Shown: positions 6,593 to 44,066 of the stretch, piece by piece
How the letters are laid out: every line of letters starts with the position of its first letter
How positions within the stretch are numbered: position 1 is the first letter of the stretch
From: Nemertoderma westbladi
Lineage: Eukaryota; Animalia; Xenacoelomorpha
Assembly (NCBI GenBank): GCA_032718475.1
Contig: JAUCBJ010004447.1
Location: 1 to 45,565 of the forward strand
Direction: 5' to 3'
Length of the DNA: 45,565 nucleotides
Translations under genes and position numbers: made by a program
The notes under the pieces: generated by a model
Told to the model about the DNA's origin: nothing
Seen by the model: only the letters and a program-made list of their open reading frames with translations
Databases searched by the model: none

Positions 6593-6956
6593 ATTGTCCG
6601 GGTCGGAATTGTCCGGGTCGGAATTGTCCGGGTCGGAATTGTCCGGGTCGGAATTGTCCGGGTCGGAATTGTCTGGGTCGGAAATGTCCGAATCGGAATT
6701 GTCCGGGTCGGAATTGTCCGGGTCGGAATTGTCCGGGTCGGAATTGTCCGGGTCGGAATTGTCCGGGTCGGAATTGCCTGGGTCGGAAATGTCCGAATCG
6801 GAATTGTCCGGGTCGGAATTGTCCGGGTCGGAATTGTCCGGGTCAGAATTGTCCGGGTCGGAATTGTCCGGGTCGGAATTGTCCGGGTCGGAATTGTCCG
6901 GGAAGGAATTGTCCGGGTCGGAATTGACTGGGTCGGAAATGTCCGAATCGGAATTG
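6593..6956. repeat. 15-bp minisatellite (GTCCGGGTCGGAATT), about 24 copies
   Basis: Unit read directly. Related motifs in both orientations at 6231-6315 (AATTCCGAC, GTCGGAATT) suggest a decayed non-autonomous element. Confidence 0.92.
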
Positions 6957-12871: not shown

Positions 12872-13255
12872 AGTGGGGACTTCGCGCAGCACGAAGTTGG
12901 CAGAGCCTTAGCGAATTGACACTGTTAGGGGGTAGGTCAATTTATGCAAATAGTCACGTTGGCCCTCTAGCGGCAGACTGGAGAACTGCAGATGGATTCG
13001 CCTCCTTTGAAAGTCACAGCTAATGGTCTAATACATATCTGCCAAGTTTCAGCTTAAACGGATTAAAAGCAAAGAAATGGGAGGGCATTTAATGTTTAGA
13101 CATGTGGCCCTCTAGCGGGAGACCATTGCACTGATGGTGTCTGAAAGTCTCTCAAAAATCTCAACTTTTGCTCATATTGATACCTACAAATTTTCAACTT
13201 GGCAGCTTTAAATCCGACAAAGTTATTAGCATGTCAAAATCGTAACGACGACGAC

Positions 13256-13287: not shown

Positions 13288-13386
13288 CAACGACGACGAC
13301 GACGACGACAACTATTTGCATAAATTGACCCACCCCCTAACAGTGTCAATTCGCTAAGGCTCCGCCAACTTCGTGGCTCGCCCCAC
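12872..13386. mobile_element. Non-autonomous DNA element with ~70-bp inverted ends and an internal (ACG)n microsatellite
   Basis: CACGAAGTTGGCAGAGCCTTAGCGAATTGACACTGTTAGGGGGTAGGTCAATTTATGCAAATAGT (about 12890-12954) is inverted at 13311-13375. (ACG)n at about 13245-13310. The terminal motif recurs at 44333. Confidence 0.7.
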
Positions 13387-13860
13387 AAACACTAAGAAAT
13401 AGCTTAACTACAGTACGAATAGTGGAATACCCAGTATTCTGTTATTGACTATATTTTACCTACTTGTGTGGATAAAACTGTTTGTAATATTGAACTATGA
13501 AAAAGAGCAACAGTTATGATTTTTGTACTATTATTTGCCAAGAACAGTTTGTTGTATTAACTCCAATTGGTTGAACAAAATTACGTATCATTGTATGAAA
13601 ATCTGAGTTATCAGCATTAAAGAACCTTGCTTGTTTTTTAAACATCGTCCCCAGCTCTAACTAAGTAACTAAGTAATGTGTTAGGTTGTCCTCTACTTAC
13701 AGTTCTAATATGCTGTAGAACACATCGCAATAAGGTCAATTAATACTAAAGGTGTCCAACGAAATTAGGAATTAAAAAGTTAGAATTTTTGTGGAAAAAA
13801 ATTATAATAGTACCTCGTTTGTTGGGCCAATTTTACTAAAAGTTTCCTTCTGTGGTATAG

Positions 13861-13948
13861 ATTTCCGACACGACTTCCTCCCATAGAAGTGGAAGACGAA
13901 AGGAGGAAATCGGCTTCGGCTCAAAGGCAGAAAGACGTCCCGTACAAG
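13861..13948 (+). CDS. DNAH6: DNAH6 coding exon 4
   Basis: ggtatag|ATT..TACAAG|gtgggt; 88 nt, phases 2/0, FPTRLPPIEVEDERRKSASAQRQKDVPYK. Bridges exon 3 and exon 5 in frame. Confidence 0.8.
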
Positions 13949-16900
13949 GTGGGTTTACTTAGAAGTCCCTTACAAGGTGGGTTTACTTAGAAGTCCCTTA
14001 CAAGGTGGGTTTACTTAGAAGTCCCTTACAAGGTGGGTTTACTTAGAAGTCCCTTACAAGGTGGGTTTACTTAGAAGTCCCTTACAAGGTGGGTTTACTT
14101 AGAAGTCCCTTACATAGTGGGTTTACTTAGAAGTCCCTTACAAGGTGGGTTTACTTAGAAGTCCCTTACATAGTGGGTTTACTTAGAAGTCCCTAATAAG
14201 GTGGGTTTACTTAGAAGTCCCTTACATAGTGGGTTTACTTAGAAGTCCCTTACAAGGTGGGTTTACTTAGAAGTCCCTTACATAGTGGGTTTACTTAGAA
14301 GTCCCGTACAAGGTGGGTTTACTTAGAAGTCCCTTACATAGTGGGTTTACTTAGAAGTCCCTAATAAGGTGGGTTTACTTAGAAGTCTCGTACAAGGTGG
14401 GTTTACTTAGAAGTCCCTAATAAGGTGGGTTTACTTAGAAGTCCCTTACATAGTGGGTTTACTTAGAAGTCCCTTACAAGGTGGGTTTACTTAGAAGTCC
14501 CTTACATAGTGGGTTTACTTAGAAGTCCCTAATAAGGTGGGTTTACTTAGAAGTCCCTTACATAGTGGGTTTACTTAGAAGTCCCTTAAAAGGTGGGTTT
14601 ACTTAGAAGTCCCTTACATAGTGGGTTTACTTAGAAGTCCCTAATAAGGTGGGTTTACTTAGAAGTCTCGTACAAGGTGGGTTTACTTAGAAGTCCCTAA
14701 TAAGGTGGGTTTACTTAGAAGTCCCTTACATAGTGGGTTTACTTAGAAGTCCCTTACAAGGTGGGTTTACTTAGAAGTCCCTTACATAGTGGGTTTACTT
14801 AGAAGTCCCGTACAAGGTGGGTTTACTTAGAAGTCCCTTACATAGTGGGTTTACTTAGAAGTCCCTAATAAGGTGGGTTTACTTAGAAGTCTCGTACAAG
14901 GTGGGTTTACTTAGAAGTCCCTAATAAGGTGGGTTTACTTAGAAGTCCCTTACATAGTGGGTTTACTTAGAAGTCCCTTACAAGGTGGGTTTACTTAGAA
15001 GTCCCTTACATAGTGGGTTTACTTAGAAGTCCCTAATAAGGTGGGTTTACTTAGAAGTCCCTTACATAGTGGGTTTACTTAGAAGTCCCTTACAAGGTGG
15101 GTTTACTTAGAAGTCCCTTACATAGTGGGTTTACTTAGAAGTCCCTAATAAGGTGGGTTTACTTAGAAGTCCCTTACAAGGTGGGTTTACTTAGAAGTCC
15201 CTAATAAGGTGGGTTTACTTAGAAGTCCCTTACATAGTGGGTTTACTTAGAAGTCCCTTACAAGGTGGGTTTACTTAGAAGTCTCGTACAAGGTGGGTTT
15301 ACTTAGAAGTCCCTAATAAGGTGGGTTTACTTAGAAGTCCCTTACATAGTGGGTTTACTTAGAAGTCCCTTACAAGGTGGGTTTACTTAGAAGTCCCTTA
15401 CAAGGTGGGTTTACTTAGAAGTCCCTTACATAGTGGGTTTACTTAGAAGTCCCTAATAAGGTGGGTTTACTTAGAAGTCCCTTACAAGGTGGGTTTACTT
15501 AGAAGTCCCTTACAAGGTGGGTTTACTTAGAAGTCCCTTACATAGTGGGTTTACTTAGAAGTCCCTAATAAGGTGGGTTTACTTAGAAGTCCCTTACAAG
15601 GTGGGTTTACTTAGAAGTCCCTTACAAGGTGGGTTTACTTAGAAGTCCCTTACATAGGTGGGTTTACTTAGAAGTCCCTTACATAGTGGGTTTACTTAGA
15701 AGTCCCTTACAAGGTGGGTTTACTTAGAAGTCCCTAATAAGGTGGGTTTACTTAGAAGTCCCTTACAAGGTGGGTTTACTTAGAAGTCCCTTACAAGGTG
15801 GGTTTACTTAGAAGTCCCTTACATAGTGGGTTTACTTAGAAGTCCCTTACATAGGTGGGTTTACTTAGAAGTCCCTTACATAGGTGGGTTTACTTAGAAG
15901 TCCCTTACATAGTGGGTTTACTTAGAAGTCCCTTACAAGGTGGGTTTACTTAGAAGTCCCTTACAAGGTGGGTTTACTTAGAAGTCCCTTACATAGGTGG
16001 GTTTACTTAGAAGTCCCTTACATAGTGGGTTTACTTAGAAGTCCCTTACATAGTGGGTTTACTTAGAAGTCCCTAATAAGGTGGGTTTACTTAGAAGTCC
16101 CTTACAAGGTGGGTTTACTTAGAAGTCCCTAATAAGGTGGGTTTACTTAGAAGTCCCTTACATAGTGGGTTTACTTAGAAGTCCCTTACAAGGTGGGTTT
16201 ACTTAGAAGTCCCTTACAAGGTGGGTTTACTTAGAAGTCCCTTACAAGGTGGGTTTACTTAGAAGTCCCTTACATAGTGGGTTTACTTAGAAGTCCCTAA
16301 TAAGGTGGGTTTACTTAGAAGTCCCTTACAAGGTGGGTTTACTTAGAAGTCCCTTACATAGTGGGTTTACTTAGAAGTCCCTAATAAGGTGGGTTTACTT
16401 AGAAGTCCCTTACATAGGTGGGTTTACTTAGAAGTCCCTTACAAGGTGGGTTTACTTAGAAGTCCCTTACATAGTGGGTTTACTTAGAAGTCCCTTACAT
16501 AAGTGTGGGTTTACTTAGAAGTCCCTAATAAGGTGGGTTTACTTAGAAGTCCCTTACATAGGTGGGTTTACTTAGAAGTCCCTTACAAGGTGGGTTTACT
16601 TAGAAGTCCCTTACATAGTGGGTTTACTTAGAAGTCCCTTACATAGTGGGTTTACTTAGAAGTCCCTTACAAGGTGGGTTTACTTAGAAGTCCCTTACAT
16701 AGTGGGTTTACTTAGAAGTCCCTAATAAGGTGGGTTTACTTAGAAGTCCCTTACATAGTGGGTTTACTTAGAAGTCCCTTACAAGGTGGGTTTACTTAGA
16801 AGTCCCTTACAAGGTGGGTTTACTTAGAAGTCCCTTACAAGGTGGGTTTACTTAGAAGTCCCTTACATAGTGGGTTTACTTAGAAGTCCCTAATAAGGTG

Positions 16901-19900
16901 GGTTTACTTAGAAGTCCCTAATAAGGTGGGTTTACTTAGAAGTCCCTTACATAGTGGGTTTACTTAGAAGTCCCTTACAAGGTGGGTTTACTTAGAAGTC
17001 CCTTACATAGTGGGTTTACTTAGAAGTCCCTTACAAGGTGGGTTTACTTAGAAGTCCCTTACATAGTGGGTTTACTTAGAAGTCCCTAATAAGGTGGGTT
17101 TACTTAGAAGTCCCTAATAAGGTGGGTTTACTTAGAAGTCCCTTACATAGTGGGTTTACTTAGAAGTCCCTAATAAGGTGGGTTTACTTAGAAGTCCCTT
17201 ACATAGTGGGTTTACTTAGAAGTCCCTTACAAGGTGGGTTTACTTAGAAGTCCCTTACATAGTGGGTTTACTTAGAAGTCCCTTACAAGGTGGGTTTACT
17301 TAGAAGTCCCTTACATAGTGGGTTTACTTAGAAGTCCCTAATAAGGTGGGTTTACTTAGAAGTCCCTTACATAGTGGGTTTACTTAGAAGTCCCTAATAA
17401 GGTGGGTTTACTTAGAAGTCCCTTACATAGTGGGTTTACTTAGAAGTCCCTTACAAGGTGGGTTTACTTAGAAGTCCCTAACAAGGTGGGTTTACTTAGA
17501 AGTCCCTTACAAGGTGGGTTTACTTAGAAGTCCCTTACATAGTGGGTTTACTTAGAAGTCCCTTAAGTGGGTTTACTTAGAAGTCCCTAATAGTGGGTTT
17601 ACTTAGAAGTCCCTTACATAGTGGGTTTACTTAGAAGTCCCTTACAAGGTGGGTTTACTTAGAAGTCCCTTACATAGTGGGTTTACTTAGAAGTCCCTTA
17701 CATAGGTGGGTTTACTTAGAAGTCCCTTACAAGGTGGGTTTACTTAGAAGTCCCTTACATAGTGGGTTTACTTAGAAGTCCCTAATAAGGTGGGTTTACT
17801 TAGAAGTCCCTTACATAGTGGGTTTACTTAGAAGTCCCTTACAAGGTGGGTTTACTTAGAAGTCCCTTACATAGTGGGTTTACTTAGAAGTCCCTAATAA
17901 GGTGGGTTTACTTAGAAGTCCCTTACAAGGTGGGTTTACTTAGAAGTCCCTTACATAGTGGGTTTACTTAGAAGTCCCTAATAAGGTGGGTTTACTTAGA
18001 AGTCCCTAATAAGGTGGGTTTACTTAGAAGTCCCTTACATAGTGGGTTTACTTAGAAGTCCCTAATAAGGTGGGTTTACTTAGAAGTCCCTTACATAGTG
18101 GGTTTACTTAGAAGTCCCTTACAAGGTGGGTTTACTTAGAAGTCCCTAACAAGGTGGGTTTACTTAGAAGTCCCTTACAAGGTGGGTTTACTTAGAAGTC
18201 CCTTACATAGTGGGTTTACTTAGAAGTCCCTGATAAGGTGGGTTTACTTAGAAGTCCCTTACATAGTGGGTTTACTTAGAAGTCCCTTACAAGGTGGGTT
18301 TACTTAGAAGTCCCTTACATAGTGGGTTTACTTAGAAGTCCCTAATAAGGTGGGTTTACTTAGAAGTCCCTTACAAGGTGGGTTTACTTAGAAGTCCCTT
18401 ACATAGTGGGTTTACTTAGAAGTCCCTAATAAGGTGGGTTTACTTAGAAGTCCCTTACAAGGTGGGTTTACTTAGAAGTCCCTTACATAGTGGGTTTACT
18501 TAGAAGTCCCTAATAAGGTGGGTTTACTTAGAAGTCCCTTACATAGTGGGTTTACTTAGAAGTCCCTTACAAGGTGGGTTTACTTAGAAGTCCCTAACAA
18601 GGTGGGTTTACTTAGAAGTCCTTTACAAGGTGGGTTTACTTAGAAGTCCCTTACATAGTGGGTTTACTTAGAAGTCCCTAATAAGGTGGGTTTACTTAGA
18701 AGTCCCTTACAAGGTGGGTTTACTTAGAAGTCCCTTACATAGTGGGTTTACTTAGAAGTCCCTAATAAGGTGGGTTTACTTAGAAGTCCCTTACAAGGTG
18801 GGTTTACTTAGAAGTCCCTTACAAGGTGGGTTTACTTAGAAGTCCCTTACATAGTGGGTTTACTTAGAAGTCCCTAATAAGGTGGGTTTACTTAGAAGTC
18901 CCTTACAAGGTGGGTTTACTTAGAAGTCCCTTACATAGTGGGTTTACTTAGAAGTCCCTAATAAGGTGGGTTTACTTAGAAGTCCCTTACAAGGTGGGTT
19001 TACTTAGAAGTCCCTTACAAGGTGGGTTTACTTAGAAGTCCCTTACATAGTGGGTTTACTTAGAAGTCCCTAATAAGGTGGGTTTACTTAGAAGTCCCTT
19101 ACAAGGTGGGTTTACTTAGAAGTCCCTTACGAGGTGGGTTTACTTAGAAGTCCCTTACACGGTGGGTTTACTTAGAAGTCCCTTACAAGGTGGGTTTTCT
19201 TAGAAGTCCCTTACAAGGTGGGTTTACTTAGAAGTCCCTTACATAGTGGGTTTACTTAGAAGTCCCTAATAAGGTGGGTTTACTTAGAAGTCCCTTACAT
19301 AGTGGGTTTACTTAGAAGTCCCTTACAAGGTGGTTTTACTTATAAGTCCCTTACATAGTGGGTTTACTTAGAAGTCCCTAATAAGGTGGGTTTACTTAGA
19401 AGTCCCTTACAAGGTGGGTTTACTTAGAAGTCCCTTACATGGCGGATTTACTTAGAAGTCCCTTACAAGGTGGGTTTACTTAGAAGTCCCTTACATAGTG
19501 GGTTTACTTAGAAGTCCCTTACAAGGTGGGTTTACTTAGAAGTCCCTTACATAGTGGGTTTACTTAGAAGTCCCTTACAAGGTGGGTTTACTTAGAAGTC
19601 CCTTACATAGTGGGTTTACTTAGAAGTCCCTTACAAGGTGGGTTTACTTAGAAGTCCCTTACATAGTGGGTTTACTTAGAAGTCCCTAATAAGGTGGGTT
19701 TACTTAGAAGTCCCTTACATAGTGGGTTTATTTAGAAGTCCCTTACAAGGTGTGTTTACTTAGAAGTCCCTTACATAGTGGGTTTACTTAGAAGTCCCTA
19801 ATAAGGTGGGTTTACTTAGAAGTCCCTTACATAGTGGGTTTACTTAGAAGTCCCTAATAAGGTGGGTTTACTTAGAAGTCCCTTACAAGGTGGGTTTACT

Positions 19901-20322
19901 TAGAAGTCCCTTACATAGTGGGTTTACTTAGAAGTCCCTTACAAGGTGGGTTTACTTAGAAGTCCCTTACATAGTGGGTTTACTTAGAAGTCCCTAATAA
20001 GGTGGGTTTACTTAGAAGTCCCTTACATAGTGGGTTTATTTAGAAGTCCCTTACAAGGTGTGTTTACTTAGAAGTCCCTTACATAGTGGGTTTACTTAGA
20101 AGTCCCTAATAAGGTGGGTTTACTTAGAAGTCCCTTACATAGTGGGTTTACTTAGAAGTCCCTAATAAGGTGGGTTTACTTAGAAGTCCCTTACAAGGTG
20201 GGTTTACTTAGAAGTCCCTTACATGGTGGATTTACTTAGAAGTCCCTTACAAGGTGGGTTTACTTAGAAGTCCCTTACAAGGTGGGTTTACTTAGAAGTC
20301 CCTTACAAGGTGGGTTTACTTA
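13937..20322 (+). repeat. 28-bp tandem array, 228 copies, each a copy of the exon-4 donor junction (GTCCCTTACAAG|GTGGGTTTACTTAGAA)
   Basis: First GT at 13949, last at 20310; distance 6361 = 227 x 28 + 5, with seven +1, one +3, one -3 and one -2 indels located by eye. Confidence 0.95.
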
Positions 20323-20393
20323 TATTGATATTTGCAATTGATTTTTTAACCACTTTGTTGGCATTTCTGTTAATTTTGAATTCGGATTGACTA

Positions 20394-23300
20394 TATAACA
20401 ACTTATTTGGCTGCAGGATGTCGGCTATTGTCCCGGTTCGATCTCTATAACTCTTTATTTGGCTGCAGGGTGTCGGCTATTGTCCCGGTTCGATCTCTAT
20501 AGCACTTTATTTGGCTGCAGGGTGTCTGTTATTGTCCCGGTTCGATCTCTATAACTCTTTATTTGGCTGCAGGGTGTCGGCTATTGTCCCGGTTCGATCT
20601 CTATAACTCTTTATTTGGCTGCAGGGTGTCGGCTATTGTCCCGGTTCGATCTCTATAACTCTTTATTTGGCTGCAGGGTGTCGGCTATTGTCCCGGTTCG
20701 ATCTCTATAACTCTTTATTTGGGTGCAGGGTGTCGGCTATTGTCCCGGTTCGATCTCTATAACCCTTTATTTGGCTGCAGGGTGTCGGCTATTGTCCCGG
20801 TTCGATCTCTATAACCCTTTATTTGGCTGCAGGGTGTCGGTTATTGTCCCGGTTCGATCTCTATAACTCTTTATTTGGCTGCAGGGTGTCGGCTATTGTC
20901 CCGGTTCGATCTCTATAACCCTTTATTTGGCTGCAGGGTGTCGGCTATTGTCCCGGTTCGATCTCTATAACTCTTTATTTGGCTGAAGGGTGTCGGCTAT
21001 TGTCCCGGTTCGATATCTATAACACTTTATTTGGCTGCAGGGTGTCGGTTATTGTCCCGGTTCGATCACTATAACTCTTTATTTGGCTGCATAGTGTCGG
21101 GTATTGTCCCTGTTCTATCACTATAACCCTTTATTTTGCTGTAGGGTGTCGGCTATTTTCCCTGTTCTATCTCTATAACTCTTTATTTGGCTGCAGGGTG
21201 TCGGCTATTGTCCCGGTTCGATCACTATAACACTTTATTTGGCTGCAGGGTGTCGGCTATTGTCCCGGTTCGATCTCTATAACTCTTTATTTGGCTGCAG
21301 GGTGTCGGTTATTGTCCCGGTTCGATCTCTATAACTCTTTATTTGGCTGCAGGGTGTCGGCCATTGTCCCGGTTCGATATCTATAACACTTTATTTGGCT
21401 GCAGGGTGTCTGTTATTGTCCCGGTTCGATCTCTATAACTCTTTATTTGGCTGCAGGGTGTCGGCTATTGTCCCGGTTCGATCTCTATAACTCTTTATTT
21501 GGCTGCAGGGTGTCGGTTATTGTCCCGGTTCGATCACTATAACTCTTTATTTGGCTGCAGGGTGTCGGCTATTGTTCCGGTTCGATCTCTATAACTCTTT
21601 ATTTGGCTGCAGGGTGTCGGCTATTGTCCCTGTTCTATCACTATAACCCTTTATTTGGCTGCAGGGTGTCGGCTATTGTCCCGGTTCGATCTCTATAACT
21701 CTTTATTTGGCTGCAGGGTGTCGGCTATTGTCCCGGTTCGATCTCTATAACTCTTTATTTGGCTGCAGGGTGTCGGCTATTGTCCCGGTTCGATCTCTAT
21801 AACTCTTTATTTGGCTGCAGGGTGTCGGCTATTGTCCCGGTTCGATCTCTATAACTCTTTATTTGGCTGCAGGGTGTCGGCTATTGTCCCGGTTCGATCT
21901 CTATAACTCTTTATTTGGCTGCAGGGTGTCGGCTATTGTCCCGGTTCGATCTCTATAACTCTTTATTTGGCTGCAGGGTGTCGGCTATTGTCCCGGTTCG
22001 ATCTCTATAACTCTTTTGCAGGGTGTCGGCTATTGTCCCGGTTCGATCTCTATAACTCTTTATTTGGCTGCATGGTGTCGGCTATTGTCCCGGTTCGATC
22101 TCTATAACTCTTTATTTGGCTGCAGGGTGTCGGTTATTGTCCCGGTTCGATCTCTATAACTCTTTATTTGGCTGCAGGGTGTCGGCTATTGTCCCGGTTC
22201 GATCTCTATAACTCTTTATTTGGCTGCAGGGTGTCGGCTATTGTCCCGGTTCGATCTCTATAACTCTTTATTTGGCTGCAGGGTGTCGGCTATTGTCCCG
22301 GTTCGATATCTATAACACTTTATTTGGCTGCAGGGTGTCGGCTATTGTCCCGGTTCGATCTCTATAACTCTTTATTTGGCTGCAGGGTGTCGGCTATTGT
22401 CCCGGTTCGATCTCTATAACTCTTTATTTGGCTGCAGGGTGTCGGCTATTGTCCCGGTTCGATCTCTATAACTCTTTATTTGGCTGCAGGGTGTCTGTTA
22501 TTGTCCCGGTTCGATCTCTATAACTCTTTATTTGGCTGCAGGGTGTCGGCTATTGTCCCGGTTCGATATCTATAACACTTTATTTGGCTGCAGGGTGTCT
22601 GTTATTGTCCCGGTTCGATCTCTATAACTCTTTATTTGGCTGCAGGGTGTCGGCTATTGTCCCGGTTCGATATCTATAACACTTTATTTGGCTGCAGGGT
22701 GTCGGCTATTGTCCCGGTTCGATCACTATAACTCTTTATTTGGCTGCAGGGTGTCGGCTATTGTCCTGGTTCGATCTCTATAACTCTTTATTTGGCTGTA
22801 GGGTGTCGGCTATTGTCCCGGTTCGATCTCTATAACTCTTTATTTGGCTGCAGGGTGTCGGCTATTGTCCCGGTTCGATCTCTATAACTCTTTATTTGGC
22901 TGCAGGGTGTCGGCTATTGTCCCGGTTCGATATCAATAACACTTTATTTGGCTGCAGGGTGTCTGTTATTGTCCCGGTTCGATCTCTATAACTCTTTATT
23001 TGGCTGCAGGGTGTCGGCTATTGTCCCGGTTCGATCTCTATAACTCTTTATTTGGCTGCAGGGTGTCGGCTATTGTCCCGGTTCGATCTCTATAACTCTT
23101 TATTTGGCTGCAGGGTGTCGGCTATTGTCCCGGTTCGATATCTATAACTCTTTATTTGGCTGCAGGGTGTCGGCTATTGTCCCGGTTCGATCACTATAAC
23201 TCTTTATTTGGCTGCAGGGTGTCGGCTATTGTCCCGGTTCGATCTCTATAACTCTTTATTTGGCTGCAGGGTGTCGGCTATTGTCCCGGTTCGATCTCTA

Positions 23301-26300
23301 TAACCCTTTATTTGGCTGCAGGGTGTCGGCTATTGTCCCGGTTCGATCACTATAACTCTTTATTTGGCTGCAGGGTGTCGGCTATTGTCCCTGTTCTATC
23401 ACTATAACCCTTTATTTTGCTGCAGGGTGTCGGCTATTGTCCCGGTTCGATCTCTATAACTCTTTATTTGGCTGCAGGGTGTCGGCTATTGTCCCGGTTC
23501 GATCTCTATAACTCTTTATTTGGCTGCAGGGTGTCGGTTATTGTCCCGGTTCGATCACTATAACACTTTATTTGGCTGCAGGGTGTCGGCTATTGTCCCG
23601 GTTCGATCTCTATAACTCTTTATTTGGCTGCAGGGTGTCGGCTATTGTCCCGGTTCGATCTCTATAACTCTTTATTTGGCTGCAGGGTGTCGGTTATTGT
23701 CCCGGTTCGATCTCTATAACTCTTTATTTGGCTGCAGGGTGTCGGCTATTGTCCCGGTTCGATCACTATAACTCTTTATTTGGCTGCAGGGTGTCGGCTA
23801 TTGTCCCGGTTCGAACTCTATAACTCTTTATTTGGCTGCAGGGTGTCGGTTATTGTCCCGGTTCGATCTCTATAACTCTTTATTTGGCTGCAGGGTGTCG
23901 GCTATTGTCCCGGTTCGATCACTATAACTCTTTATTTGGCTGCAGGGTGTCGGCTATTGTCCCGGTTCGAACTCTATAACTCTTTATTTGGCTGCAGGGT
24001 GTCGGCTATTGTCCCGGTTCGATATCTATAACACTTTATTTGGCTGCAGGGTGTCGGCTATTGTCCCGGTTCGATCTCTATAACTCTTTATTTGGCTGCA
24101 GGGTGTCGGTTATTGTCCCGGTTCGATCTCTATAACTCTTTATTTGGCTGCAGGGTGTCGGCTATTGTCCCGGTTCGAACTCTATAACTCTTTATTTGGC
24201 TGCAGGGTGTCGGCTATTGTCCCGGTTCGAACTCTATAACTCTTTATTTGGCTGCAGGGTGTCGGCTATTGTCCCGGTTCGATATCTATAACACTTTATT
24301 TGGCTGCAGGGTGTCGGTTATTGTCCCGGTTCGATCTCTATAACTCTTTATTTGGCTGCAGGGTGTCGGTTATTGTCCCGGTTCGATCTCTATAACTCTT
24401 TATTTGGCTGCAGGGTGTCGGCTATTGTCCCGGTTCGATCACTATAACTCTTTATTTGGCTGCAGGGTGTCGGCTATTGTCCCGGTTCGAACTCTATAAC
24501 TCTTTATTTGGCTGCAGGGTGTCGGCTATTGTCCCGGTTCGATCACTATAACTCTTTATTTGGCTGCAGGGTGTCGGCTATTGTCCCGGTTCGATATCTA
24601 TAACACTTTATTTGGCTGCAGGGTGTCGGCTATTGTCCCTGTTCTATCTCTATAACTCTTTATTTGGCTGCAGGGTGTCGGCTATTGTCCCGGTTCGATC
24701 TCTATAACTCTTTATTTGGCTGCAGGGTGTCGGCTATTGTCCCGGTTCGTTCTCTATAACTCTTTATTTGGCTGCAGGGTGTCGGTTATTGTCCCGGTTC
24801 GATCTCTATAACTCTTTATTTGGCTGCAGGGTGTCGGCTATTGTCCCGGTTCGATCACTATAACTCTTTATTTGGCTGCAGGGTGTCGGCTATTGTCCCG
24901 GTTCGATATCTATAACACTTTATTTGGCTGCAGGGTGTCGGCTATTGTCCCGGTTCGATCTCAATAACTCTTTATTTGGCTGCAGGGTGTCGGCTATTGT
25001 CCCGGTTCGATCACTATAACTCTTTATTTGGCTGCAGGGTGTCGGCTATTGTCCCGGTTCGATCTCTATAACTCTTTATTTGGCTGCAGGGTGTCGGCTA
25101 TTGTCCCGGTTCGATATCTATAACTCTTTATTTGGCTGCAGGGTGTCGGCTATTGTCCCGGTTCGATATCTATAACTCTTTATTTGGCTGCAGGGTGTCG
25201 GCTATTGTCCCGGTTCGATCTCTATAACTCTTTATTTGGCTGAAGGGTGTCGGCTATTGTCCCGGTTCGATATCTATAACACTTTATTTGGCTGCAGGGT
25301 GTCGGCTATTGTCCCGGTTCGATCTCTATAACTCTTTATTTGGCTGCAGGGTGTCGGCTATTGTCCCGGTTCGATATCTATAACTCTTTATTTGGCTGCA
25401 GGGTGTCGGCTATTGTCCCGGTTCGATCTCTATAACTCTTTATTTGGCTGAAGGGTGTCGGCTATTGTCCCGGTTCGATATCTATAACACTTTATTTGGC
25501 TGCAGGGTGTCGGTTATTGTCCCGGTTCGATCACTATAACTCTTTATTTGGCTGCATAGTGTCGGGTATTGTCCCTGTTCTATCACTATAACCCTTTATT
25601 TTGCTGTAGGGTGTCGGCTATTTTCCCTGTTCTATCTCTATAACTCTTTATTTGGCTGCAGGGTGTCGGCTATTGTCCCTGTTCTATCACTATAACCATT
25701 TATTTGGCTGCAGGGTGTCGGCTATTGTCCCGGTTCGATCTCTAACTCTTTATTTGGCTGCAGTGTGTCGGCTATTGTCCCGGTTCGATATCAATAACAC
25801 TTTATTTGGCTGCAGGGTGTCGGCTATTGTCCCTGTTCTATCACTATAACCATTTATTTGGCTGCAGGGTGTCGGCTATTGTCCCGGTTCGATCTCTAAC
25901 TCTTTATTTGGCTGCAGGGTTTCGGTTATTGTCCCGGTTCGATCACTATAACTCTTTATTTGGCTGCAGGGTGTCGGCTATTGTCCCGGTTCGATCTCTA
26001 TAACTCTTTATTTGGCTGCAGGGTGTCGGCTATTGTCCCGGTTCGATCTCTAACTCTTTATTTGGCTGCAGGGTTTCGGTTATTGTCCCGGTTCGATCAC
26101 TATAACTCTTTATTTGGCTGCAGGGTGTCGGCTATTGTCCCGGTTCGATATCAATAACACTTTATTTGGCTGCAGGGTTTCGGTTATTGTCCCGGTTCGA
26201 TCTCTAACTCTTTATTTGGCTGCAGGGTGTCGGCTATTGTCCCGGTTCGATCACTATAACTCTTTATTTGGCTGCAGGGTGTCGGTTATTGTCCCGGTTC

Positions 26301-29300
26301 GATATCTATAACTCTTTATTTGGCTGCAGGGTGTCGGCTATTGTCCCGGTTCGATATCTATAACTCTTTATTTGGCTGCAGGGTGTCGGCTATTGTCCCT
26401 GTTCTATCTCTATAACTCTTTATTTGGCTGCAGGGTGTCGGTTATTGTCCCGGTTCGATCTCTATAACTCTTTATTTGGCTGCAGGGTGTCGGCTATTGT
26501 CCCGGTTCGATCACTATAACTCTTTATTTGGCTGCAGGGTGTCGGCTATTGTCCCGGTTCGATCTCTATAACTCTTTATTTGGCTGCAGGGTGTCGGCTA
26601 TTGTCCCGGTTCGATCTCTATAACTCTTTATTTGGCTGCAGGGTGTCGGTTATTGTCCCGGTTCGATCTCTATAACTCTTTATTTGGCTGCAGGGTGTCG
26701 GCTATTGTCCCGGTTCGATCACTATAACTCTTTATTTGGCTGCAGCGTGTCGGCTATTGTCCCGGTTCGATCTCTATAACTCTTTATTTGGCTGCAGGGT
26801 GTCGGTTATTGTCCCGGTTCGATCTCTATAACACTTTATTTGGCTGCAGGGTGTCGGCTATTGTCCCGGTTCGATCACTATAACACTTTATTTGGCTGCA
26901 GGGTGTCGGCTATTGTCCCGGTTCGATCTCTATAACTCTTTATTTGGCTGTAGGGTGTCGGCTATTGTCCCGGTTCGATCACTATAACTCTTTATTTGGC
27001 TGCAGGGTGTCGGCTATTGTCCCGGTTCGATCTCTATAACTCTTTATTTGGCTGTAGGGTGTCGGCTATTGTCCCGGTTCGATCACTATAACTCTTTATT
27101 TGGCTGCAGGGTGTCGGCTATTGTCCCGGTTCGATATCTATAACACTTTATTTGGCTGCAGGGTGTCGGCTATTGTCCCGGTTCGATCACTATAACTCTT
27201 TATTTGGCTGCAGGGTGTCGGCTATTGTCCCGGTTCGATATCTATAACACTTTATTTGGCTGCAGGGTGTCGGCTATTGTCCCGGTTCGATCACTATAAC
27301 ACTTTATTTGGCTGCAGGGTGTCGGCTATTGTCCCGGTTCGATCTCTATAACTCTTTATTTGGCTGTAGGGTGTCGGCTATTGTCCCGGTTCGATCACTA
27401 TAACTCTTTATTTGGCTGCAGGCGCAGGGTGTCGGCTATTGTTCCGGTTCGATCTCTATAACTCTTTATTTGGCTGCAGGGTGTCGGCTATTGTCCCGGT
27501 TCGATCTCTATAACTCTTTATTTGGCTGTAGGGTGTCGGCTATTGTCCCGGTTCGATATCTATAACACTTTATTTGGCTGCAGGGTGTCGGGTATTGTCC
27601 CTGTTCTATCACTATAACCCTTTATTTTGCTGCAGGGTGTCGGTTATTGTCCCGGTTCGATCTCTATAACCCTTTATTTGGCTGCAGGCGCAGGGTGTCG
27701 GCTATTGTTCCGGTTCGATCTCTATAACTCTTTATTTGGCTGCAGGGTGTCGGCTATTGTCCCGGTTCGATCTCTATAACTCTTTATTTGGCTGTAGGGT
27801 GTCGGCTATTGTCCCGGTTCGATCTCTATAACTCTTTATTTGGCTGCAGGGTGTCGGCTATTGTCCCGGTTCGATATCTATAACACTTTATTTGGCTGCA
27901 GGGTGTCGGCTATTGTCCCGGTTCGATCTCTATAACCCTTTATTTGGCTGCAGGGTGTCGGCTATTGTCCCGGTTCGATATCTATAACACTTTATTTGGC
28001 TGCAGGGTGTCGGTTATTGTCCCGGTTCGATCACTATAACTCTTTATTTGGCTGCATAGTGTCGGGTATTGTCCCTGTTCTATCACTATAACCCTTTATT
28101 TTGCTGCAGGGTGTCGGCTATTGTCCCGGTTCGATCACTATAACTCTTTATTTGGCTGAAGGGTGTCGGCTATTGTCCCGGTTCGATATCTATAACACTT
28201 TATTTGGCTGCAGGGTGTCGGTTATTGTCCCGGTTCGATCACTATAACTCTTTATTTGGCTGCATAGTGTCGGGTATTGTCCCTGTTCTATCCTTATAAC
28301 CCTTTATTTTGCTGCAGGGTGTCGGCTATTGTCCCGGTTCGATCACTATAACTCTTTATTTGGCTGAATAGTGTCGGGTATTGTCCCGGTTCGATCTCTA
28401 TAACTCTTTATTTGGCTGCAGGGTGTCGGCTATTGTCCCGGTTCGATCTCTATAACTCTTTATTTGGCTGCAGGGTGTCGGCTATTGTCCCGGTTCGATC
28501 TCTATAACTCTTTATTTGGCTGCAGGGTGTCGGTTATTGTCCCGGTTCGATCTCTATAACTCTTTATTTGGCTGCAGGGTGTCGGCTATTGTCCCGGTTC
28601 GATCTCTATAACTCTTTATTTGGCTGCAGGGTGTCGGCTATTGTCCCGGTTCGATCTCTATAACTCTTTATTTGGCTGCAGGGTGTCGGCTATTGTCCCG
28701 GTTCGATCTCTATAACTCTTTATTTGGCTGCAGGGTGTCGGCTATTGTCCCGGTTCGATCACTATAACTCTTTATTTGGCTGCATAGTGTCGGGTATTGT
28801 CCCGGTTCGATCTCTATAACTCTTTATTTGGCTGCAGGGTGTCGGCTATTGTCCCGGTTCGATCTCTATAACTCTTTATTTGGCTGCAGGGTGTCGGCTA
28901 TTGTCCCTGTTCTATCACTATAACCATTTATTTGGCTGCAGGGTGTCGGCTATTGTCCCGGTTCGATCTCTATAACTCTTTATTTGGCTGAAGGGTGTCG
29001 GCTATTGTCCCGGTTCGATATAACACTTTATTTGGCTGCAGGGTGTCGGTTATTGTCCCGGTTCGATCACTATAACTCTTTATTTGGCTGCATAGTGTCG
29101 GGTATTGTCCCTGTTCTATCACTATAACCCTTTATTTGGCTGCAGGGTGTCGGCTATTGTCCCGGTTCGATCTCTATAACTCTTTATTTGGCTGCAGGGT
29201 GTCGGCTATTGTCCCGGTTCGATCTCTATAACTCTTTATTTGGCTGCAGGGTGTCGGCTATTGTCCCGGTTCGATATCTATAACACTTTATTTGGCTGCA

Positions 29301-32240
29301 GGGTGTCGGCTATTGTCCCGGTTCGATCTCTATAACTCTTTATTTGGCTGAAGGGTGTCGGCTATTGTCCCGGTTCGATATCTATAACACTTTATTTGGC
29401 TGCAGGGTGTCGGTTATTGTCCCGGTTCGATCACTATAACTCTTTATTTGGCTGCATAGTGTCGGGTATTGTCCCTGTTCTATCACTATAACCCTTTATT
29501 TTGCTGTAGGGTGTCGGTTATTGTCCCGGTTCGATCTCTATAACTCTTTATTTGGCTGCAGGGTGTCGGCTATTGTCCCGGTTCGATCACTATAACCATT
29601 TATTTGGCTGCAGGGTGTCGGCTATTGTCCCGGTTCGATCTCTATAACTCTTTATTTGGCTGCAGGGTGTCGGTTATTGTCCCGGTTCGATCTCTATAAC
29701 TCTTTATTTGGCTGCAGGGTGTCGGCTATTGTCCCGGTTCGATCACTATAACTCTTTATTTGGCTGCAGGGTGTCGGCTATTGTCCCGGTTCGATCTCTA
29801 TAACCCTTTATTTGGCTGCAGGGTGTCGGGTATTGTCCCTGTTCTATCACTATAACCCTTTCTTTTGCTGCAGGGTGTCGGCTATTGTCCCGGTTCGATC
29901 TCTATAACTCTTTATTTGGCTGCAGGGTGTCGGGTATTGTCCCTGTTCTATCACTATAACCCTTTCTTTTGCTGCAGGGTGTCGGCTATTGTCCCGGTTC
30001 GATCTCTATAACTCTTTATTTGGCTGCAGGGTGTCGGCTATTGTCCCGGTTCGATCACTATAACTCTTTATTTGGCTGCAGGGTGTCGGCTATTGTCCCG
30101 GTTCGATCTCTATAACCCTTTATTTGGCTGCAGGGTGTCGGGTATTGTCCCTGTTCTATCACTATAACCCTTTCTTTTGCTGCAGGGTGTCGGCTATTGT
30201 CCCGGTTCGATCTCTATAACTCTTTATTTGGCTGCAGGGTGTCGGCTATTGTCCCGGTTCGATCTCTATAACTCTTTATTTGGCTGCATAGTGTCGGCTA
30301 TTGTCCCTGTTCTATCACTATAACCCTTTATTTTGCTGTAGGGTGTCGGCTATTTTCCCTGTTCTATCTCTATAACTCTTTATTTGGCTGCAGGGTGTCG
30401 GCTATTGTCCCGGTTCGATCTCTATAACTCTTTATTTGGCTGCAGGGTGTCGGTTATTGTCCCGGTTCGATCTCTATAACTCTTTATTTGGCTGCAGGGT
30501 GTCGGCTATTGTCCCGGTTCGATCACTATAACTCTTTATTTGGCTGCAGGGTGTCGGCTATTGTCCCGGTTCGATCTCTATAACCCTTTATTTGGCTGCA
30601 GGGTGTCGGCTATTGTCCCGGTTCGATCTCTATAACTCTTTATTTGGCTGCAGTGTGTCGGTTATTGTCCCGGTTCGATCTCTATAACTCTTTATTTGGC
30701 TGCAGGGTGTCGGCTATTGTCCCGGTTCGATCTCTATAACTCTTTATTTGGCTGCAGGGTGTCGGTTATTGTCCCGGTTCGATCTCTATAACTCTTTATT
30801 TGGCTGCAGGGTGTCGGCTATTGTCCCGGTTCGATCACTATAACTCTTTATTTGGCTGCAGGGTGTCGGCTATTGTCCCGGTTCGATCTCTATAACCCTT
30901 TATTTGGCTGCAGGGTGTCGGCTATTGTCCCGGTTCGATCTCTATAACTCTTTATTTGGCTGCAGTGTGTCGGTTATTGTCCCGGTTCGATCTCTATAAC
31001 TCTTTATTTGGCTGCAGGGTGTCGGCTATTGTCCCGGTTCGATATCAATAACACTTTATTTGGCTGCAGGGTTTCGGTTATTGTCCCGGTTCGATATCTA
31101 TAACTCTTTATTTGGCTGCAGGGTGTCGGCTATTGTCCCGGTTCGATCTCTATAACTCTTTATTTGGCTGCAGGGTTTCGGTTATTGTCCCGGTTCGATA
31201 TCAATAACTCTTTATTTGGCTGCAGGGTGTCGGTTATTGTCCCGGTTCGATCACTATAACCATTTATTTGGCTGCAGGGTGTCGGCTATTGTCCCGGTTC
31301 TATCTCTATAACTCTTTATTTGGCTGCATAGTGTCGGGTATTGTCCCTGTTCTATCACTATAACCCTTTATTTTGCTGTAGGGTGTCGGCTATTTTCCCT
31401 GTTCTATCTCTATAACTCTTTATTTGGCTGCAGGGTGTCGGCTATTGTCCCGGTTCGATCTCTATAACCCTTTATTTGGCTGCAGGGTGTCGGCTATTGT
31501 CCCGGTTCGATATCTATAACACTTTATTTGGCTGCAGGGTGTCGGTTATTGTCCCGGTTCGATCACTATAACTCTTTATTTGGCTGCATAGTGTCGGGTA
31601 TTGTCCCTGTTCTATCACTATAACCCTTTATTTTGCTGTAGGGTGTCGGCTATTTTCCCTGTTCTATCTCTATAACTCTTTATTTGGCTGCAGGGTGTCG
31701 GCTATTGTCCCGGTTCGATATCAATAACACTTTATTTGGCTGCAGGGTTTCGGTTATTGTCCCGGTTCGATCACTATAACTCTTTATTTGGCTGCAGGGT
31801 GTCGGCTATTGTCCTGGTTCGATCACTATAACTCTTTATTTGGCTGCAGGGTGTCGGCTATTGTCCCGGTTCGATCTCTATAACTCTTTATTTTGCTGCA
31901 GGGTGTCGGCTATTGTCCCGGTTCGATCTCTATAACCCTTTATTTGGCTGCAGGGTGTCGGCTATTGTCCCGGTTCGATATCTATAACCCTTTATTTGGC
32001 TGCAGGGTGTCGGCTATTGTCCCGGTTCGATCTCTATAACCCTTTATTTGGCTGCAGGGTGTCGGCTATTTTCCCGGTTCGATCTCTATAACTCTTTATT
32101 TGGCTGCAGGGTGTCGGCTATTGTCCCGGTTCGATCTCTATAACCCTTTATTTGGCTGCAGGGTGTCGGCTATTGTCCCGGTTCGATATCTATAACCCTT
32201 TATTTGGCTGCAGGGTGTCGGTTATTGTCCCGGTTCGATC
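20394..32240 (+). repeat. 52-bp tandem array, 228 copies, each a copy of the exon-5 acceptor junction (TCTATAACTCTTTATTTGGCTGCAG|GGTGTCGGCTATTGTCCCGGTTCGATC)
   Basis: First AG ends 20416, last ends 32213; distance 11797 = 227 x 52 - 7, with indels -7, four -2, two +6 and -4 located by eye. Confidence 0.95.
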
Positions 32241-32353
32241 AAGGACATCCATGATGTTATCAACTTCATCAGGAACAATCCCAGTGTTGGATTCGTATAT
32301 CTCAGCGCTTGCGTTCCCAAATCATCTGTTGAATATCATCCCTATAACCTCAA
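32214..32353 (+). CDS. DNAH6: DNAH6 coding exon 5
   Basis: ggctgcag|GGT..CTCAA|gtaagc. GVGYCPGSIKDIHDVINFIRNNPSVGFVYLSACVPKSSVEYHPYNLK matches DNAH6 IRENEHLGFLYM..PRSSIEYDTYNLK. The first 27 nt are part of the last 52-bp unit. Confidence 0.88.
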
Positions 32354-33405
32354 GTAAGCTTTAGGACAACGTCTAACCACCACGTCCTGGAATATTAATA
32401 TTTTCTTTAAGTTTAATGGCGAAATTTGATTCTTAAAAATATAGTAAAATGCTTTGAAACACAAACACACGGGGGAAATGCAAGTTCTCCATGTGTATTA
32501 AGTAGTTTTGCTTCGTCGTGGCATTTTTGGAACGATCTACGACAACGAAAGTACCATATGATACAATGCGCGGAGTGAGTAATACCATATAGTACAATGC
32601 CCCGGGGTAAGTATATTATTAGTACCATATGGATGGCACAATTCCTAGAGGGGTTTTTTAACATACAACACTGGGTCCTACTTTCTACGATTACCCGCCA
32701 GCGTACACTTGCGTCTGACACCTTCGGTTTAGGTCGTTAGCGTTCGATTTTGCCCCGTAAAATAAATATTTTAACATCTGATGGCGATAAATATCATTAT
32801 AAACTACGGTGGTGATTTGCGGCCTTTTCCCTTTTACCTTAATTAAATAATTTTACTCTTTACCTTCCAAATAATTTTACTCTTTCTTTACCTTTTTCAA
32901 TAATTTTACTCTTTACCTTTTTCAATAATTTTACTCTTTACCTTTTTCAATAATTTTTACTCTTTACCTTTTTTAATAATTTTACTCTTTACCTTTTCCA
33001 ATAATTTGACACTTTTCAACAAGCAGACTTGGCCTTAACTGTTATAAATTGAACCGTTAGGGGTTAAGTACCGGTATTCATCTAGCCTATATTGTACTGT
33101 ACCCTACCCGTTATTGAACGGAACTGAAACAGTGTTAAATAAATATTTGAATTAGGCCTACTACATAGCTATCTATTACGAGGCGGTTTATATTGACTAC
33201 GAATTGTTACGAAAGTTATGTTTGATTTTAATTGTTAATGTTGTTTATCTGTGATATGTTTCACAATGAAAACGTTTTGTATCTTATAGTTCCTCCTTTC
33301 ATATCCTTAAGGGGGGGGGGGGGGGGGGGGGGGGGGGGTTGACTAATTAACCAAAAATGTTCGTTCCCTTATTTAGGAGGCTTCGTTTTACCCAAGATTA
33401 TTAAT

Positions 33406-35153: not shown

Positions 35154-35591
35154 ACAATATGGCTCACAATGCTATACACAGTTCAGTTCAATCTGTTCAC
35201 AGTAAAGTTGACACCGTTTCAGTTCCGAAAGACTTCAAAGGTCAATAACGGGTATGGTACAATATATGTAGGCTAGGTGAATTCCGCTACCAGTACTTAG
35301 CGGGTTCGATCCGATTCGTACGTTCGATTCGCAACAGTTAAGGCCAAGTCTGCTTGTTGAAAAGAGTAAAATTATTGAAAAAGGTAAAGAGTAAAATTAT
35401 TGAAAAAGGTAAAGAGTAAAATTATTGAAAAAGGTAAAGAGTAAAATTATTTGGAAGGTAAAAGTAAAATTATTTGGAAGGTAAAGAGTAAAATTATTTG
35501 TAAGGTAAAGAGTAAAATTATTTAATTAAGGTAAAAGGGAAAAGGCCGCAAATCACCACCGTAATAAACGTTGTATATTTTATTCTCTCAG

Positions 35592-36656: not shown

Positions 36657-36931
36657 GTGCGTTATGGTGATAGACTTACTTAAGTTCACTAAGTGGCCCG
36701 TCGCGTACTTAATGACACACTTAACATAGTAATTTCCAATTCAATTCGTTTCCAACACCCCACCTATAGAAGTGTCGATACAAAGAGTTGTTATAGTTGC
36801 ATTTGATTGGTCGGAACATTGACTTCCTATTGGCTGTTCTGCTTTCCCTTACAGGTTAATGATCGTTACACTGTCCTGCTATTGGTTGCTCTGCTTTCCC
36901 CTCCTATTGGTTGCTCTGCTTTCCCTTGCAG

Positions 36932-41575: not shown

Positions 41576-44066
41576 GTCAGTGTCCAAAGTGTTCTACAAG
41601 AGTCCATGGATGTGGACAGTGTCTCTAAGGTCAGTGTCCCAAGTGTTCTACAAGAGTCCATGGATGTGGACAGTGTCGCTAAGGTCAGTGTCCCAAGTGT
41701 TCTACAAGAGTCCATAGATGTGGACAGTGTCGCTAGGGTCAGTGTCCCAAGTTTTCTACAAGAGTCCAGAATGTGGACAGTGTCGCTAAGGTCAGTGTCC
41801 CAAGTGTTCTACAAGAGTCCATGGATGTGGACAGTGTCGCTAAGGTCAGTGTCCCAAGTGTTCTACAAGAGTCCATGGATGTGGACAGTGTCGCTAAGGT
41901 CAGTGTCCCAAGTGTTCTACAAGAGTCCATGGATGTGGACAGTGTCGCTAAGGTCAGTGTCCCAAGTGTTCTACAAGAGTCCATGGATGTGGACAGTGTC
42001 GCTAAGGTCAGTGTCCCAAGTGTTCTACAAGAGTCCAGGGTGTGGACAGTGTCGCTAAGGTCAGTGTCCCAAGTATTCTATAAGAGTCCATGGATGTGGA
42101 CAGTGTGGCTAAGGTCAGTGTCCCAAATGTTCTACAAGAGTCCAGGATGTGGACAATGTCGCTAAGGTCAGTGACCCAAGTGTTCTACAAGAGTCCATAG
42201 ATGTGGACAATGTCGCTAAGGTCAGTGTCCCAAGTGTTCTACAAGAGTCCATAGATGTGGACAATGTCGCTAAGGTCAGTGTCCCACGTGTTCTACAAGA
42301 GTCCATAGATGTGGACAATGTCGCTAAAGTCATTGTCCCACGTGTTCTACAAGAGTCCATGGATGTGGACAGTGTCGCTAAGGTCAGTGTCCCAAGTGTT
42401 CTACAAGAGTCCATGGATGTGGACAGTGCCTCTAAGGGCAGTGTCCCAAGTGTTCTACAAGAGTCCATGGATGTGGACATTGTCGCTAAGGTCAGTGTCC
42501 CAAGTGTTCTACAAGAGTCCATGGATGTGGACAGTGTCGCTAAGGTCAGTGTCCCAAGTGTTCTACAAGAGTCCATGGATGTGGACAGTGTCTCTAAGGT
42601 CAGCGTCCCAAGTGTTCTACAAGAGTCCATGGATGTGGACAATGTCGCTAAGGTCAGTGACCCAAGTGTTCTACAAGAGTCCAAGGATGTGGACAGTGTC
42701 GCTAAGGTCAGCGTCCCAAGTGTTCTACAAGAGTCCATGGATGTGGACAGTGTCGCTAAGGTCAGTGTCCCAAGTGTTCTACAAGAGTCCATGGATGTGG
42801 ACAATGTCGCTAAGGTCAGTGACCCAAGTGTTCTACAAGAGTCCAAGGATGTGGACAGTGTCGCTAAGGTCAGCGTCCCAAGTGTTCTACAAGAGTCCAT
42901 GGATGTGGACAGTGTCGCTAAGGTCAGTGTCCCAAGTGTTCTACAAGAGTCCATGGATGTGGACAATGTCGCTAAGGTCAGCGTCCCAAGTGTTCTACAA
43001 GAGTCCATGGATGTGGACAGTGTCGCTAAGGTCAGTGCCCCAAGTGTTCTACAAGAGTCCATGGATGTGGACAGTGTCGCTAAGGTCAGTGACCCAAGTG
43101 TTCTACAAGAGTCCATGGATGTGGACAGTGTCGCTAAGGTCAGTGACCCAAGTGTTCTACAAGAGGCCATGGATGTGGACAGTGTCGCTAAGGTCAGTGA
43201 CCCAAGTGTTCTACAAGAGTCCATGGATGTGGACAGTGTCGCTAAGGTCAGTGCCCCAAGTGTTCTACAAGAGTCCATGGATGTGGACAGTGTCGCTAAG
43301 GTCAGCGTCCCAAGTGTTCTACAAGAGTCCATGGATGTGGACAGTGTCTCTAAGGTCAGTGTCCCAAGTGTTCTACAAGAGTCCATGGATGTGGACAGTG
43401 TCTCTAAGGTCAGTGTCCCAAGTGTTCTACAAGAGTCCATGGATGTGGACAGTGTCTCTAAGGTCAGTGTCCCAAGTGTTCTACAAGAGTCCATGGATGT
43501 GGACAGTGTCTCTAAGGTCAGTGTCCCAAGTGTTCTACAAGAGTCCATGGATGTGGACAGTGTCTCTAAGGTCAGTGTCCCAAGTGTTCTACAAGAGTCC
43601 ATGGATGTGGACAGTGTCTCTAAGGTCAGTGTCCCAAGTGTTCTACAAGAGTCCATGGATGTGGACAGTGTCTCTAAGGTCAGTGTCCCAAGTGTTCTAC
43701 AAGAGTCCATGGATGTGGACAGTGTCTCTAAGGTCAGTGTCCCAAGTGTTCTACAAGAGTCCATGGATGTGGACAATGTCGCTAAGGTCAGTGACCCACG
43801 TGTTCTACAAGAGTCCATGGATGTGGACAATGTCGCTAAGGTCAGTGACCCAAGTGTTCTACAAGAGTCCATGGATGTGGACAGTGTCTCTAAGGTCAGT
43901 GTCCCAAGTGTTCTACAAGAGTCCATAGATGTGGACAGTGTCTCTAAGGTCAGTGTCCCAAGTGTTCTACAAGAGTCCATGGATGTGGACAGTGTCGCTA
44001 AGGTCAGTGTCCCAAGTGTTCTACAAGAGTCCATGGATGTGGACAGTGTCACTAAGGACAGTGTCT
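41546..44066 (+). repeat. 54-bp tandem array, 47 copies of the exon-13 donor junction (GAGTCCATGGATGTGGACAGTGTCGCTAAG|GTCAGTGTCCCAAGTGTTCTACAA)
   Basis: Donor positions from 41576 to 44057; distance 2481 = 46 x 54 - 3, with three 1-nt deletions. Confidence 0.95.

Follow-up and report, generated by a model that had tools for sequence, protein, structure and literature searches.

An intron of DNAH6 from Nemertoderma westbladi with 228 tandem donors and 228 tandem acceptors around a 107-nt core

Border-spanning repeats and nested introns

Minisatellites known as mirages, whose unit spans an exon-intron border, have been described in amphioxus in Adh3, the globins BflGb6 and BflGb9, troponin C and PGBD5, as tandem copies at the 5' or 3' border, often keeping GT or AG, varying in copy number and leaving splicing undisturbed, with a normal mRNA (PMC3087553, PMC3902484). 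In human F7, the first unit of a 37-bp VNTR of intron 7 crosses the exon-intron border, and, out of 5-9 identical donors, splicing takes place at the most upstream one alone, those downstream being silent; the same paper cites globin duplications where the proximal copy was used (PMC1557585). Nested splicing is represented by the Lipomyces stwintrons sensu lato, which are nested U2 introns originated by donor duplication, with two levels followed by RT-PCR (PMC7138796). Sites can also be reused after a first step in recursive splicing and re-splicing, but the known cases of re-splicing are repressed by the EJC, which is placed 20-24 nt upstream of the new junction and blocks further splicing (PMC8184009; PMC8234774).

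Each of the two arrays of the DNAH6 intron described here is a repeat of the mirage type, with a unit spanning the exon-intron border and splice signals kept in many copies. While 3-6 copies are described in BflGb6, here both ends of one intron have been amplified to 228 copies each, with equal counts, and almost no unique intron DNA survives; each array by itself is of a known repeat type. The F7 repeat has 5-9 copies on the donor side only, with no acceptor array. Inside-out removal as in Lipomyces is how a nested reading would work; however, 228 levels are here predicted from sequence, and the inner intron does not interrupt the outer donor, branch or acceptor, as it does in a strict stwintron, the outer GT and AG being whole in the DNA and the outer intron intact without inner removal. 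Among literature titles and abstract openings, mostly of open-access papers, none described a single intron whose donor and acceptor arrays match.

Layout of the intron

The window is the whole stretch analysed, 45,565 nt of contig JAUCBJ010004447.1 (assembly GCA_032718475.1). The gene is DNAH6, as one exon matches three solved DNAH6 chains (E 4e-19 to 4e-18), and the alignment of exon 5 with DNAH6 covers residues 173-213 (tblastn). The intron (13949-32213) is 18,265 nt long, and its parts, together with a second array of the same gene, are as follows:

13861..13948, + strand: DNAH6 exon 4 (numbering of the initial annotation); its 3' end is the authentic donor, with AG/GT flanks, and the spliced contig of run X4 covers it without difference
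13949..20309, + strand: donor array, made up of 227 spacers, each about 28 nt long (13 nt from the intron start, 15 nt of exon-4-like end), by Tandem Repeats Finder (TRF) and unit-by-unit parse
19442..19443, + strand: sole non-GT donor (GC), rank 32 from the core, by site scoring of the 228 donors
20310..20416, + strand: core of 107 nt, GT-AG, likely the original intron, by unit-by-unit parse
20417..32213, + strand: acceptor array, made up of 227 spacers, each about 52 nt long (27 nt of exon-5-like start, 25 nt from the intron end), by TRF and unit-by-unit parse
22071..22073, + strand: sole acceptor position where AG is missing even within two bases; it has rank 33 from the core and follows the 45-nt deleted unit (rank 32)
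32214..32353, + strand: DNAH6 exon 5, starting after the authentic (last) acceptor, by tblastn; its unique start adjoins exon 4 in the X4 contig
41576..44065, + strand: exon-13 donor array, 47 copies of 54 nt, without acceptor array, used as internal control, by TRF and border alignment

Both repeat units align to the two exon-intron borders, and the ends of the core are the parents of both units. TRF, the count proposed by the initial annotation as a check, found the 28-nt unit 228.0 times in 13933-20322 and the 52-nt unit 227.8 times in 20403-32240, and the unit-by-unit parse gave 227 donor and 227 acceptor spacers, that is 228 donor and 228 acceptor positions, so that the structure first read there, 228 donors, a 107-nt core and 228 acceptors in a DNAH6 intron, is confirmed. 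Border alignment also agrees with its acceptor unit of 25 nt of intron and 27 nt of exon; the 28-nt length of its donor unit stands, but the division into 12 nt of exon and 16 nt of intron reads better as 15 and 13.

Units of exact length make up 217/227 and 219/227 of the two arrays, with structured variants, namely 22 unit types in the donor array, in three main classes, and 61 in the acceptor array, whose first unit is a private one. Variation is similar in both halves of the acceptor unit, affecting 11 of the 25 intron-derived and 14 of the 27 exon-derived positions. Regarding site quality, GT is present at 227 of 228 donor positions and GC at one, and 83 of the 228 agree with the consensus at no more than 6 of 9 positions; AG precedes 144 donors and TAG seven, giving the AG|GT motif of recursive sites. 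The 228 acceptor positions comprise 198 CAG, 12 TAG and 6 AAG, an in-register AG thus being kept at 216, and 11 of the other 12 show AG two bases later. Usable sites tie as well, 227:227 on a lenient count, with a single dead donor at rank 32 and a single dead acceptor at rank 33.

The longest block repeats of the donor array comprise 14, 12 and 10 units at offsets 18, 11 and 7, and at the same ranks of the acceptor array identical pairs number 1/14, 0/12 and 2/10, with a background of 0.07-0.11. The same gene carries three other border duplications, among them the 47-copy exon-13 donor array, which lacks a partner array, as had been pointed out before. From its sequence, the innermost copy lacks GT and an open frame is predicted from only 4 of the 47 donors. 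If this allele works, the unpartnered array would imply that some 40 identical donors can be passed over in this organism.

Spliced product and other samples

A 413-nt spliced contig from run X4 (listed 'DNA?'), from another sample, contains the end of exon 3, exon 4 and the unique start of exon 5, its junction linking the outermost donor with the outermost acceptor; mature mRNA at the authentic outer sites is thus seen on one spliced contig, which does not fix the array lengths in X4. As this contig represents the end product only, it fits both one-step and nested routes. No contigs of X4 and X6 matched the donor unit, the core or the acceptor unit, and none of the four runs covered the core; these absences carry no weight as evidence, all of the runs being assembled contigs, which drop rare forms.

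Both unit types occur in a second sample, S2. Contig depth was considered as a copy-number measure and is uninformative: the donor/acceptor depth-peak ratio was 0.27 (X1) and 0.92 (X3) on one stretch and 1.14 and 1.28 on the other, the donor figure of one sample moved from 21x to 88x single-copy depth between stretches, and the 228:228 of the window itself, simulated as unitigs, gave ratios of 0.18-0.60 and 0.44-0.54. Six donor contigs of sample S1 have 0.18-0.28 of the word counts of the window, and one S2 acceptor contig has counts of 60-77 vs 83 in the window. Both arrays are 7-8 times lower in S1 than in S2, consistent with library bias as well as with both arrays being shorter. Two exact sequence patterns had 0 matches among metagenome contigs, and protein searches for further assemblies returned nothing, or vertebrates only.

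Equal counts and register of facing units

The probability of the second array having exactly 228 units is 0.0006-0.003 per such intron, as computed under four assumed length distributions; the tie is unusual per intron, yet would be within reach for a survey of about 250,000 windows. The equality of donor and acceptor counts is likely a coincidence.

When the short-range kinship of donor units was compared with that of facing acceptor units, the strongest correlation occurred at nested shift 0, which ranked first among 401 registers across 80 settings, with a family-wise p of about 0.002 in a post hoc, metric-dependent test of one locus. Block permutations reached this signal in 1/450 and 0/450 cases and simulated uncoupled array pairs in 0/600; without the edges and ranks 130-143, the block that prompted the test, it was reached by 13/1500 permutations (p 0.009). 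Shift 0 was first or second of 31 in all six overlapping windows, and the peak is sharp (5.6, with neighbours at 1.3 and -0.1), its shape resembling simulated co-duplication of 1-2 units; larger or jittered blocks do not fit. The head and the tail of the acceptor unit each carry the signal (z 3.6 and 4.0), its last 16 nt giving z -2.4. In addition, matching insertion units lie at nested indices 134 and 139, and both 58-nt acceptor units lie opposite 29-nt donor units (1/226 shifts equally good).

Other tests gave less. The interior register test exceeded z 2 in only 11/80 settings, and in the parallel orientation, which has no meaning, the second-best value was 4.98 vs 5.12 for the nested one. 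Closest-kin acceptor pairs matched in the donor array in 10/28 cases (expected 7.2), and the best simple kinship test gave 76/220 vs 57.5. In the nested register, unit types were not associated (MI 0.032 vs 0.035 +/- 0.012, 127/226 shifts as high), rare unit types did not overlap in 10 tests, the best of 57 single-marker associations was equalled by 5/226 shifts and not significant, and shared diagonal runs numbered 4 vs 1.55 +/- 1.4, with 24/321 registers equally high.

One-step splicing and its alternatives

The intron is probably a pair of independent mirages, spliced in one step between the outermost sites. Each array likely started as a short tandem duplication across the exon-intron border and would then have grown by ordinary unequal exchange and conversion, while exon-side recognition and first-donor preference would select the outermost sites; border duplications would survive because these sites remain adjacent to real exons. 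Such outermost-site choice is known for human F7 and the amphioxus mirages (PMC1557585; PMC3087553; PMC3902484). Applied to this intron, the F7 rule is extrapolated from 5-9 donors to 228. It is highly improbable that the array lengths, and hence the tie, are assembly errors: S1 equals the window flank letter for letter over 571 nt and carries a donor-unit variant missing from the window, and none of the contigs listed spans either array, but the exact-length units with structured variants look as if derived from accurate long reads, and no known assembly step would equalise two unrelated arrays. Piecemeal removal, in which internal sites pair randomly or by ratchet points and the outermost pair finishes, would not need equal counts and is very unlikely; the AG and TAG before many donors agree with it, as does local RNA folding, which does not set the outer sites apart (accessibility of internal vs outer sites, 0.55 vs 0.47 for donors and 0.56 vs 0.59 for acceptors), yet most AG contexts are AAG without a pyrimidine tract, EJC masking partly applies and the tie is left unexplained. 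In long introns, each ratchet point is a unique site rather than part of a tandem array.

A true coupling of the arrays, of whatever kind, is a minority possibility. The coupling idea of the initial annotation gains from the usable-site tie and the weak nested-register signal. The geometry on which it was built is right by sequence, as removal of the core leaves a new 80-nt GT..AG intron, which has a branch-like TAA motif and lacks AG in the last 52 nt before the acceptor, so that the intron holds nested GT..AG introns, the 107-nt core and predicted 80-nt shells. Obligatory inside-out splicing, with the core first, each step remaking this plausible 80-nt intron and selection holding the counts equal, is nevertheless decidedly unlikely. 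In its favour, Lipomyces provides a demonstrated case of inside-out splicing at two levels that arose by donor duplication (PMC7138796), GT and usable AG persist at 227 sites each, with the displaced AG of 11 damaged acceptors, and leftover units shifted the frame or added a stop in 8/8 cases tested, so that selection for equal counts would be strong in a nested model. Against it, the simulated correct yield falls from 67% at 0.1% skipping per site to 19% at 1% and 8% at 5%, and with the real damaged sites exceeds 20% in only 1/15 settings; the EJC would cover +5 to +9 of each next donor, and any length change of a single array would be a null allele. Together with the weak donors, the donor blocks lacking acceptor counterparts and the unpartnered exon-13 array, this error build-up and masking disfavour the strict form first proposed, with 227 obligatory repeats. 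Shell-by-shell co-growth, in which facing donor and acceptor units are duplicated or lost as a pair whatever the main splicing route, and counts are equal by construction, is unlikely. Its cause would likely be a DNA change templated by RNA, or gap repair that spans the core and is then filtered by selection, because among known settings rank-matched units touch only in partly spliced RNA. The register signal, which persists without edges and prompting block, recurs across windows and in both parts of the acceptor unit and is joined by the matching insertion units, argues for it; its post hoc basis at one locus, the poor interior settings, the negative last 16 nt, the near-equal parallel orientation and the modest kinship counts argue against, as do the large donor-only block duplications, which should have wiped out any historic register, and the intact core, which known RNA-templated events would delete. 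A Russian-doll intron combining these features, with 228 rank-matched shells, donor and facing acceptor units tied in copy number and history, at least partly inside-out removal and DNA arrays altered in turn by the partly spliced RNA, is doubtful.

Significance

On the ordinary reading, with independent mirages and one-step splicing, this intron amounts to a natural experiment on splice-site choice at its extreme, where one pair is taken among 228 x 228 near-identical sites spaced 28 and 52 nt, and diagnostic unit variants would let any intermediate be placed. If counts and register were coupled, spliceosomal splicing would be nested two orders deeper than in two-level stwintrons, escape from EJC masking would be required, and two unrelated repeat arrays would need a way to change in step.

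Structure of the arrays

The intron between exons 4 and 5 of DNAH6, the gene to which both flanking exons belong, is made up of three parts:

13949..20309: donor array, 28-nt unit
20310..20416: core, 107 nt
20417..32213: acceptor array, 52-nt unit

The 228 donors and 228 acceptors reported around the core by the initial annotation were recovered with Tandem Repeats Finder (228.0 copies of the 28-nt unit, 227.8 of the 52-nt unit) and by a unit-by-unit parse, where 227 donor spacers, the core and 227 acceptor spacers give 228 positions of each kind. The acceptor unit has the proposed make-up, 25 nt of intron end and 27 nt of exon start, while the donor unit consists of 15 nt of exon end and 13 nt of intron start instead of 12 and 16. 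Both arrays are mirages, minisatellites whose unit spans an exon-intron border, a repeat type already known: those of amphioxus sit at 5' as well as 3' borders, with variable copy numbers, and leave splicing undisturbed (PMC3087553; PMC3902484), and human F7 has 5-9 identical donors, of which only the most upstream one is used (PMC1557585). Both unit types turn up in another DNA sample too, so the arrays are not peculiar to a single assembly; that their lengths are an assembly error is very improbable.

As had been anticipated, some units bear damaged splice sites: 83 of the 228 donors match the consensus at six or fewer of nine places (7-8 of 9 in correctly registered real donors, n=12). The junction motif CATAGTG is shared by the commonest donor variant (13949-20309) and the acceptor-damaging variant (20417-32213), through either coincidence or conversion between arrays, and 11 of the 12 damaged acceptors regain AG two bases later. 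Seven 29-nt donor units, within 15629-17705, carry TAG directly 5' of GT, resembling ratchet points.

Minisatellites are abundant in the window, with nine arrays of at least 15 copies and a unit above 10 nt. Neighbouring features are:

1760-8608, minus strand: C2H2 zinc-finger gene of three exons, arranged head to head with DNAH6; its last intron is filled as far as the acceptor by 87 copies of a 34-nt unit, and 62 copies of a 17-nt unit lie 3' of the stop
32833-33015 and 35361-35535: a 25-nt x 7 repeat present twice in inverted orientation, together with its flanks; the two copies are separated by about 2.3 kb and are likely transposon ends
near 12900-12950 and 13320-13370: similar inverted pair

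A search for a longer homologue of the zinc-finger gene found none.

Mature transcript

Six sequencing runs were found, none labelled as RNA. Compared with 13400-13989, X4, a run from another sample, gave one 413-nt contig (depth 10.6, zero differences across 13859-13949). Its two overhangs correspond to the last part of exon 3 and the first part of exon 5, the latter with letters unique to the real exon 5. Because this contig runs through exons 3-4-5 with real-exon letters, a mature transcript is spliced from the first donor to the last acceptor, as expected under either route, one-step or inside-out. Given this spliced contig, X4, labelled 'DNA?', is likely an RNA run, or else holds a retrocopy.

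Possible coupling of the arrays

Under four assumed distributions, equal counts have a probability of 0.0006-0.003 per such intron, and the usable sites tie as well on a lenient count (227 GT, 227 AG); the one dead donor and the one dead acceptor have almost the same rank, 32 and 33, when counted from the core. Both acceptor insertion units lie opposite donor insertion units, which prompted a register test: do close-kin units of one array stand opposite similar units in its partner? With an edge artefact removed, the nested register (shift 0), which pairs units of equal rank, scored highest among 401 registers across 80 settings. Its value was reached by 1/450 and 0/450 block permutations, by 13/1500 permutations excluding both edges and ranks 130-143, and by 0/600 simulated uncoupled array pairs, and shift 0 was first or second of 31 in all six overlapping windows. 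The signal comes mostly from one metric (z >2 in 11 of the 80 settings, with the same exclusions), depends on one donor class and was not found at offsets >10; simpler tests of donor-acceptor association were weak or null. Coming from a single locus, it amounts to a hint and falls short of a result.

Other duplicated borders

Three further border duplications occur in DNAH6, and five of about 26 borders in this part of the gene are duplicated:

41576-44065: donor mirage after exon 13, 47 copies of a 54-nt unit; GT in 45 copies, GA in the innermost
near 40532-40644: decayed, older donor repeat, 36-nt unit, about four copies
36826-36931: doubled acceptor, an older border duplication

The exon-13 array indeed has no partner acceptor array, and its intron keeps ~90 nt of unique sequence beside it. 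The innermost GT is lost and an open frame results from only 4 of the 47 donors, so any allele that works has to pass over some 40 identical donors without partners.

Origin and removal of the intron

The anatomy, the parentage of the units and the mature junction are observed. We infer, as the most probable course, that two mirages arose independently at the two borders of one intron, that the intron would leave in a single step between its outermost sites and that the equal counts would be due to chance. Growth of both arrays shell by shell (a donor unit with its facing acceptor unit), possibly RNA-templated, is unlikely; it draws on the register peak, which is one unit wide, as in co-duplication of single shells. 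Piecemeal or ratchet removal of the intron is quite improbable.

Obligatory inside-out splicing, with the tie kept by selection, is rather doubtful. Its mechanism would resemble that of the two-level stwintrons sensu lato of Lipomyces (PMC7138796), although the model falls outside the strict stwintron definition. Against it stand the donors that a working allele would skip at exon 13, and also the block repeats within the donor array: at equal ranks of the acceptor array, the three longest have no counterpart (1/14, 0/12 and 2/10 matches). The weak donors also weigh against it. In simulated inside-out splicing, the share of correct product was 67%, 19% and 8% at per-site skipping rates of 0.1%, 1% and 5%; with the real damaged sites it exceeded 20% in only 1/15 settings. 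Leftover units broke the frame in all eight cases tried. In addition, the exon junction complex (EJC), which settles 20-24 nt upstream of a junction, prevents its re-splicing (PMC8184009; PMC8234774); with a 28-nt unit it would cover the next donor itself.

The literature search, mostly by titles and abstracts, found no case of two very long mirages that fill a single intron in equal copy number; supplements and the 2002 paper naming mirages, either of which may describe two-ended arrays, were outside its scope. What appears to be new here is such a very long pair occupying one intron with equal counts, not the repeat type. An answer far more surprising than two independent mirages is improbable, with a chance that is nevertheless appreciable.
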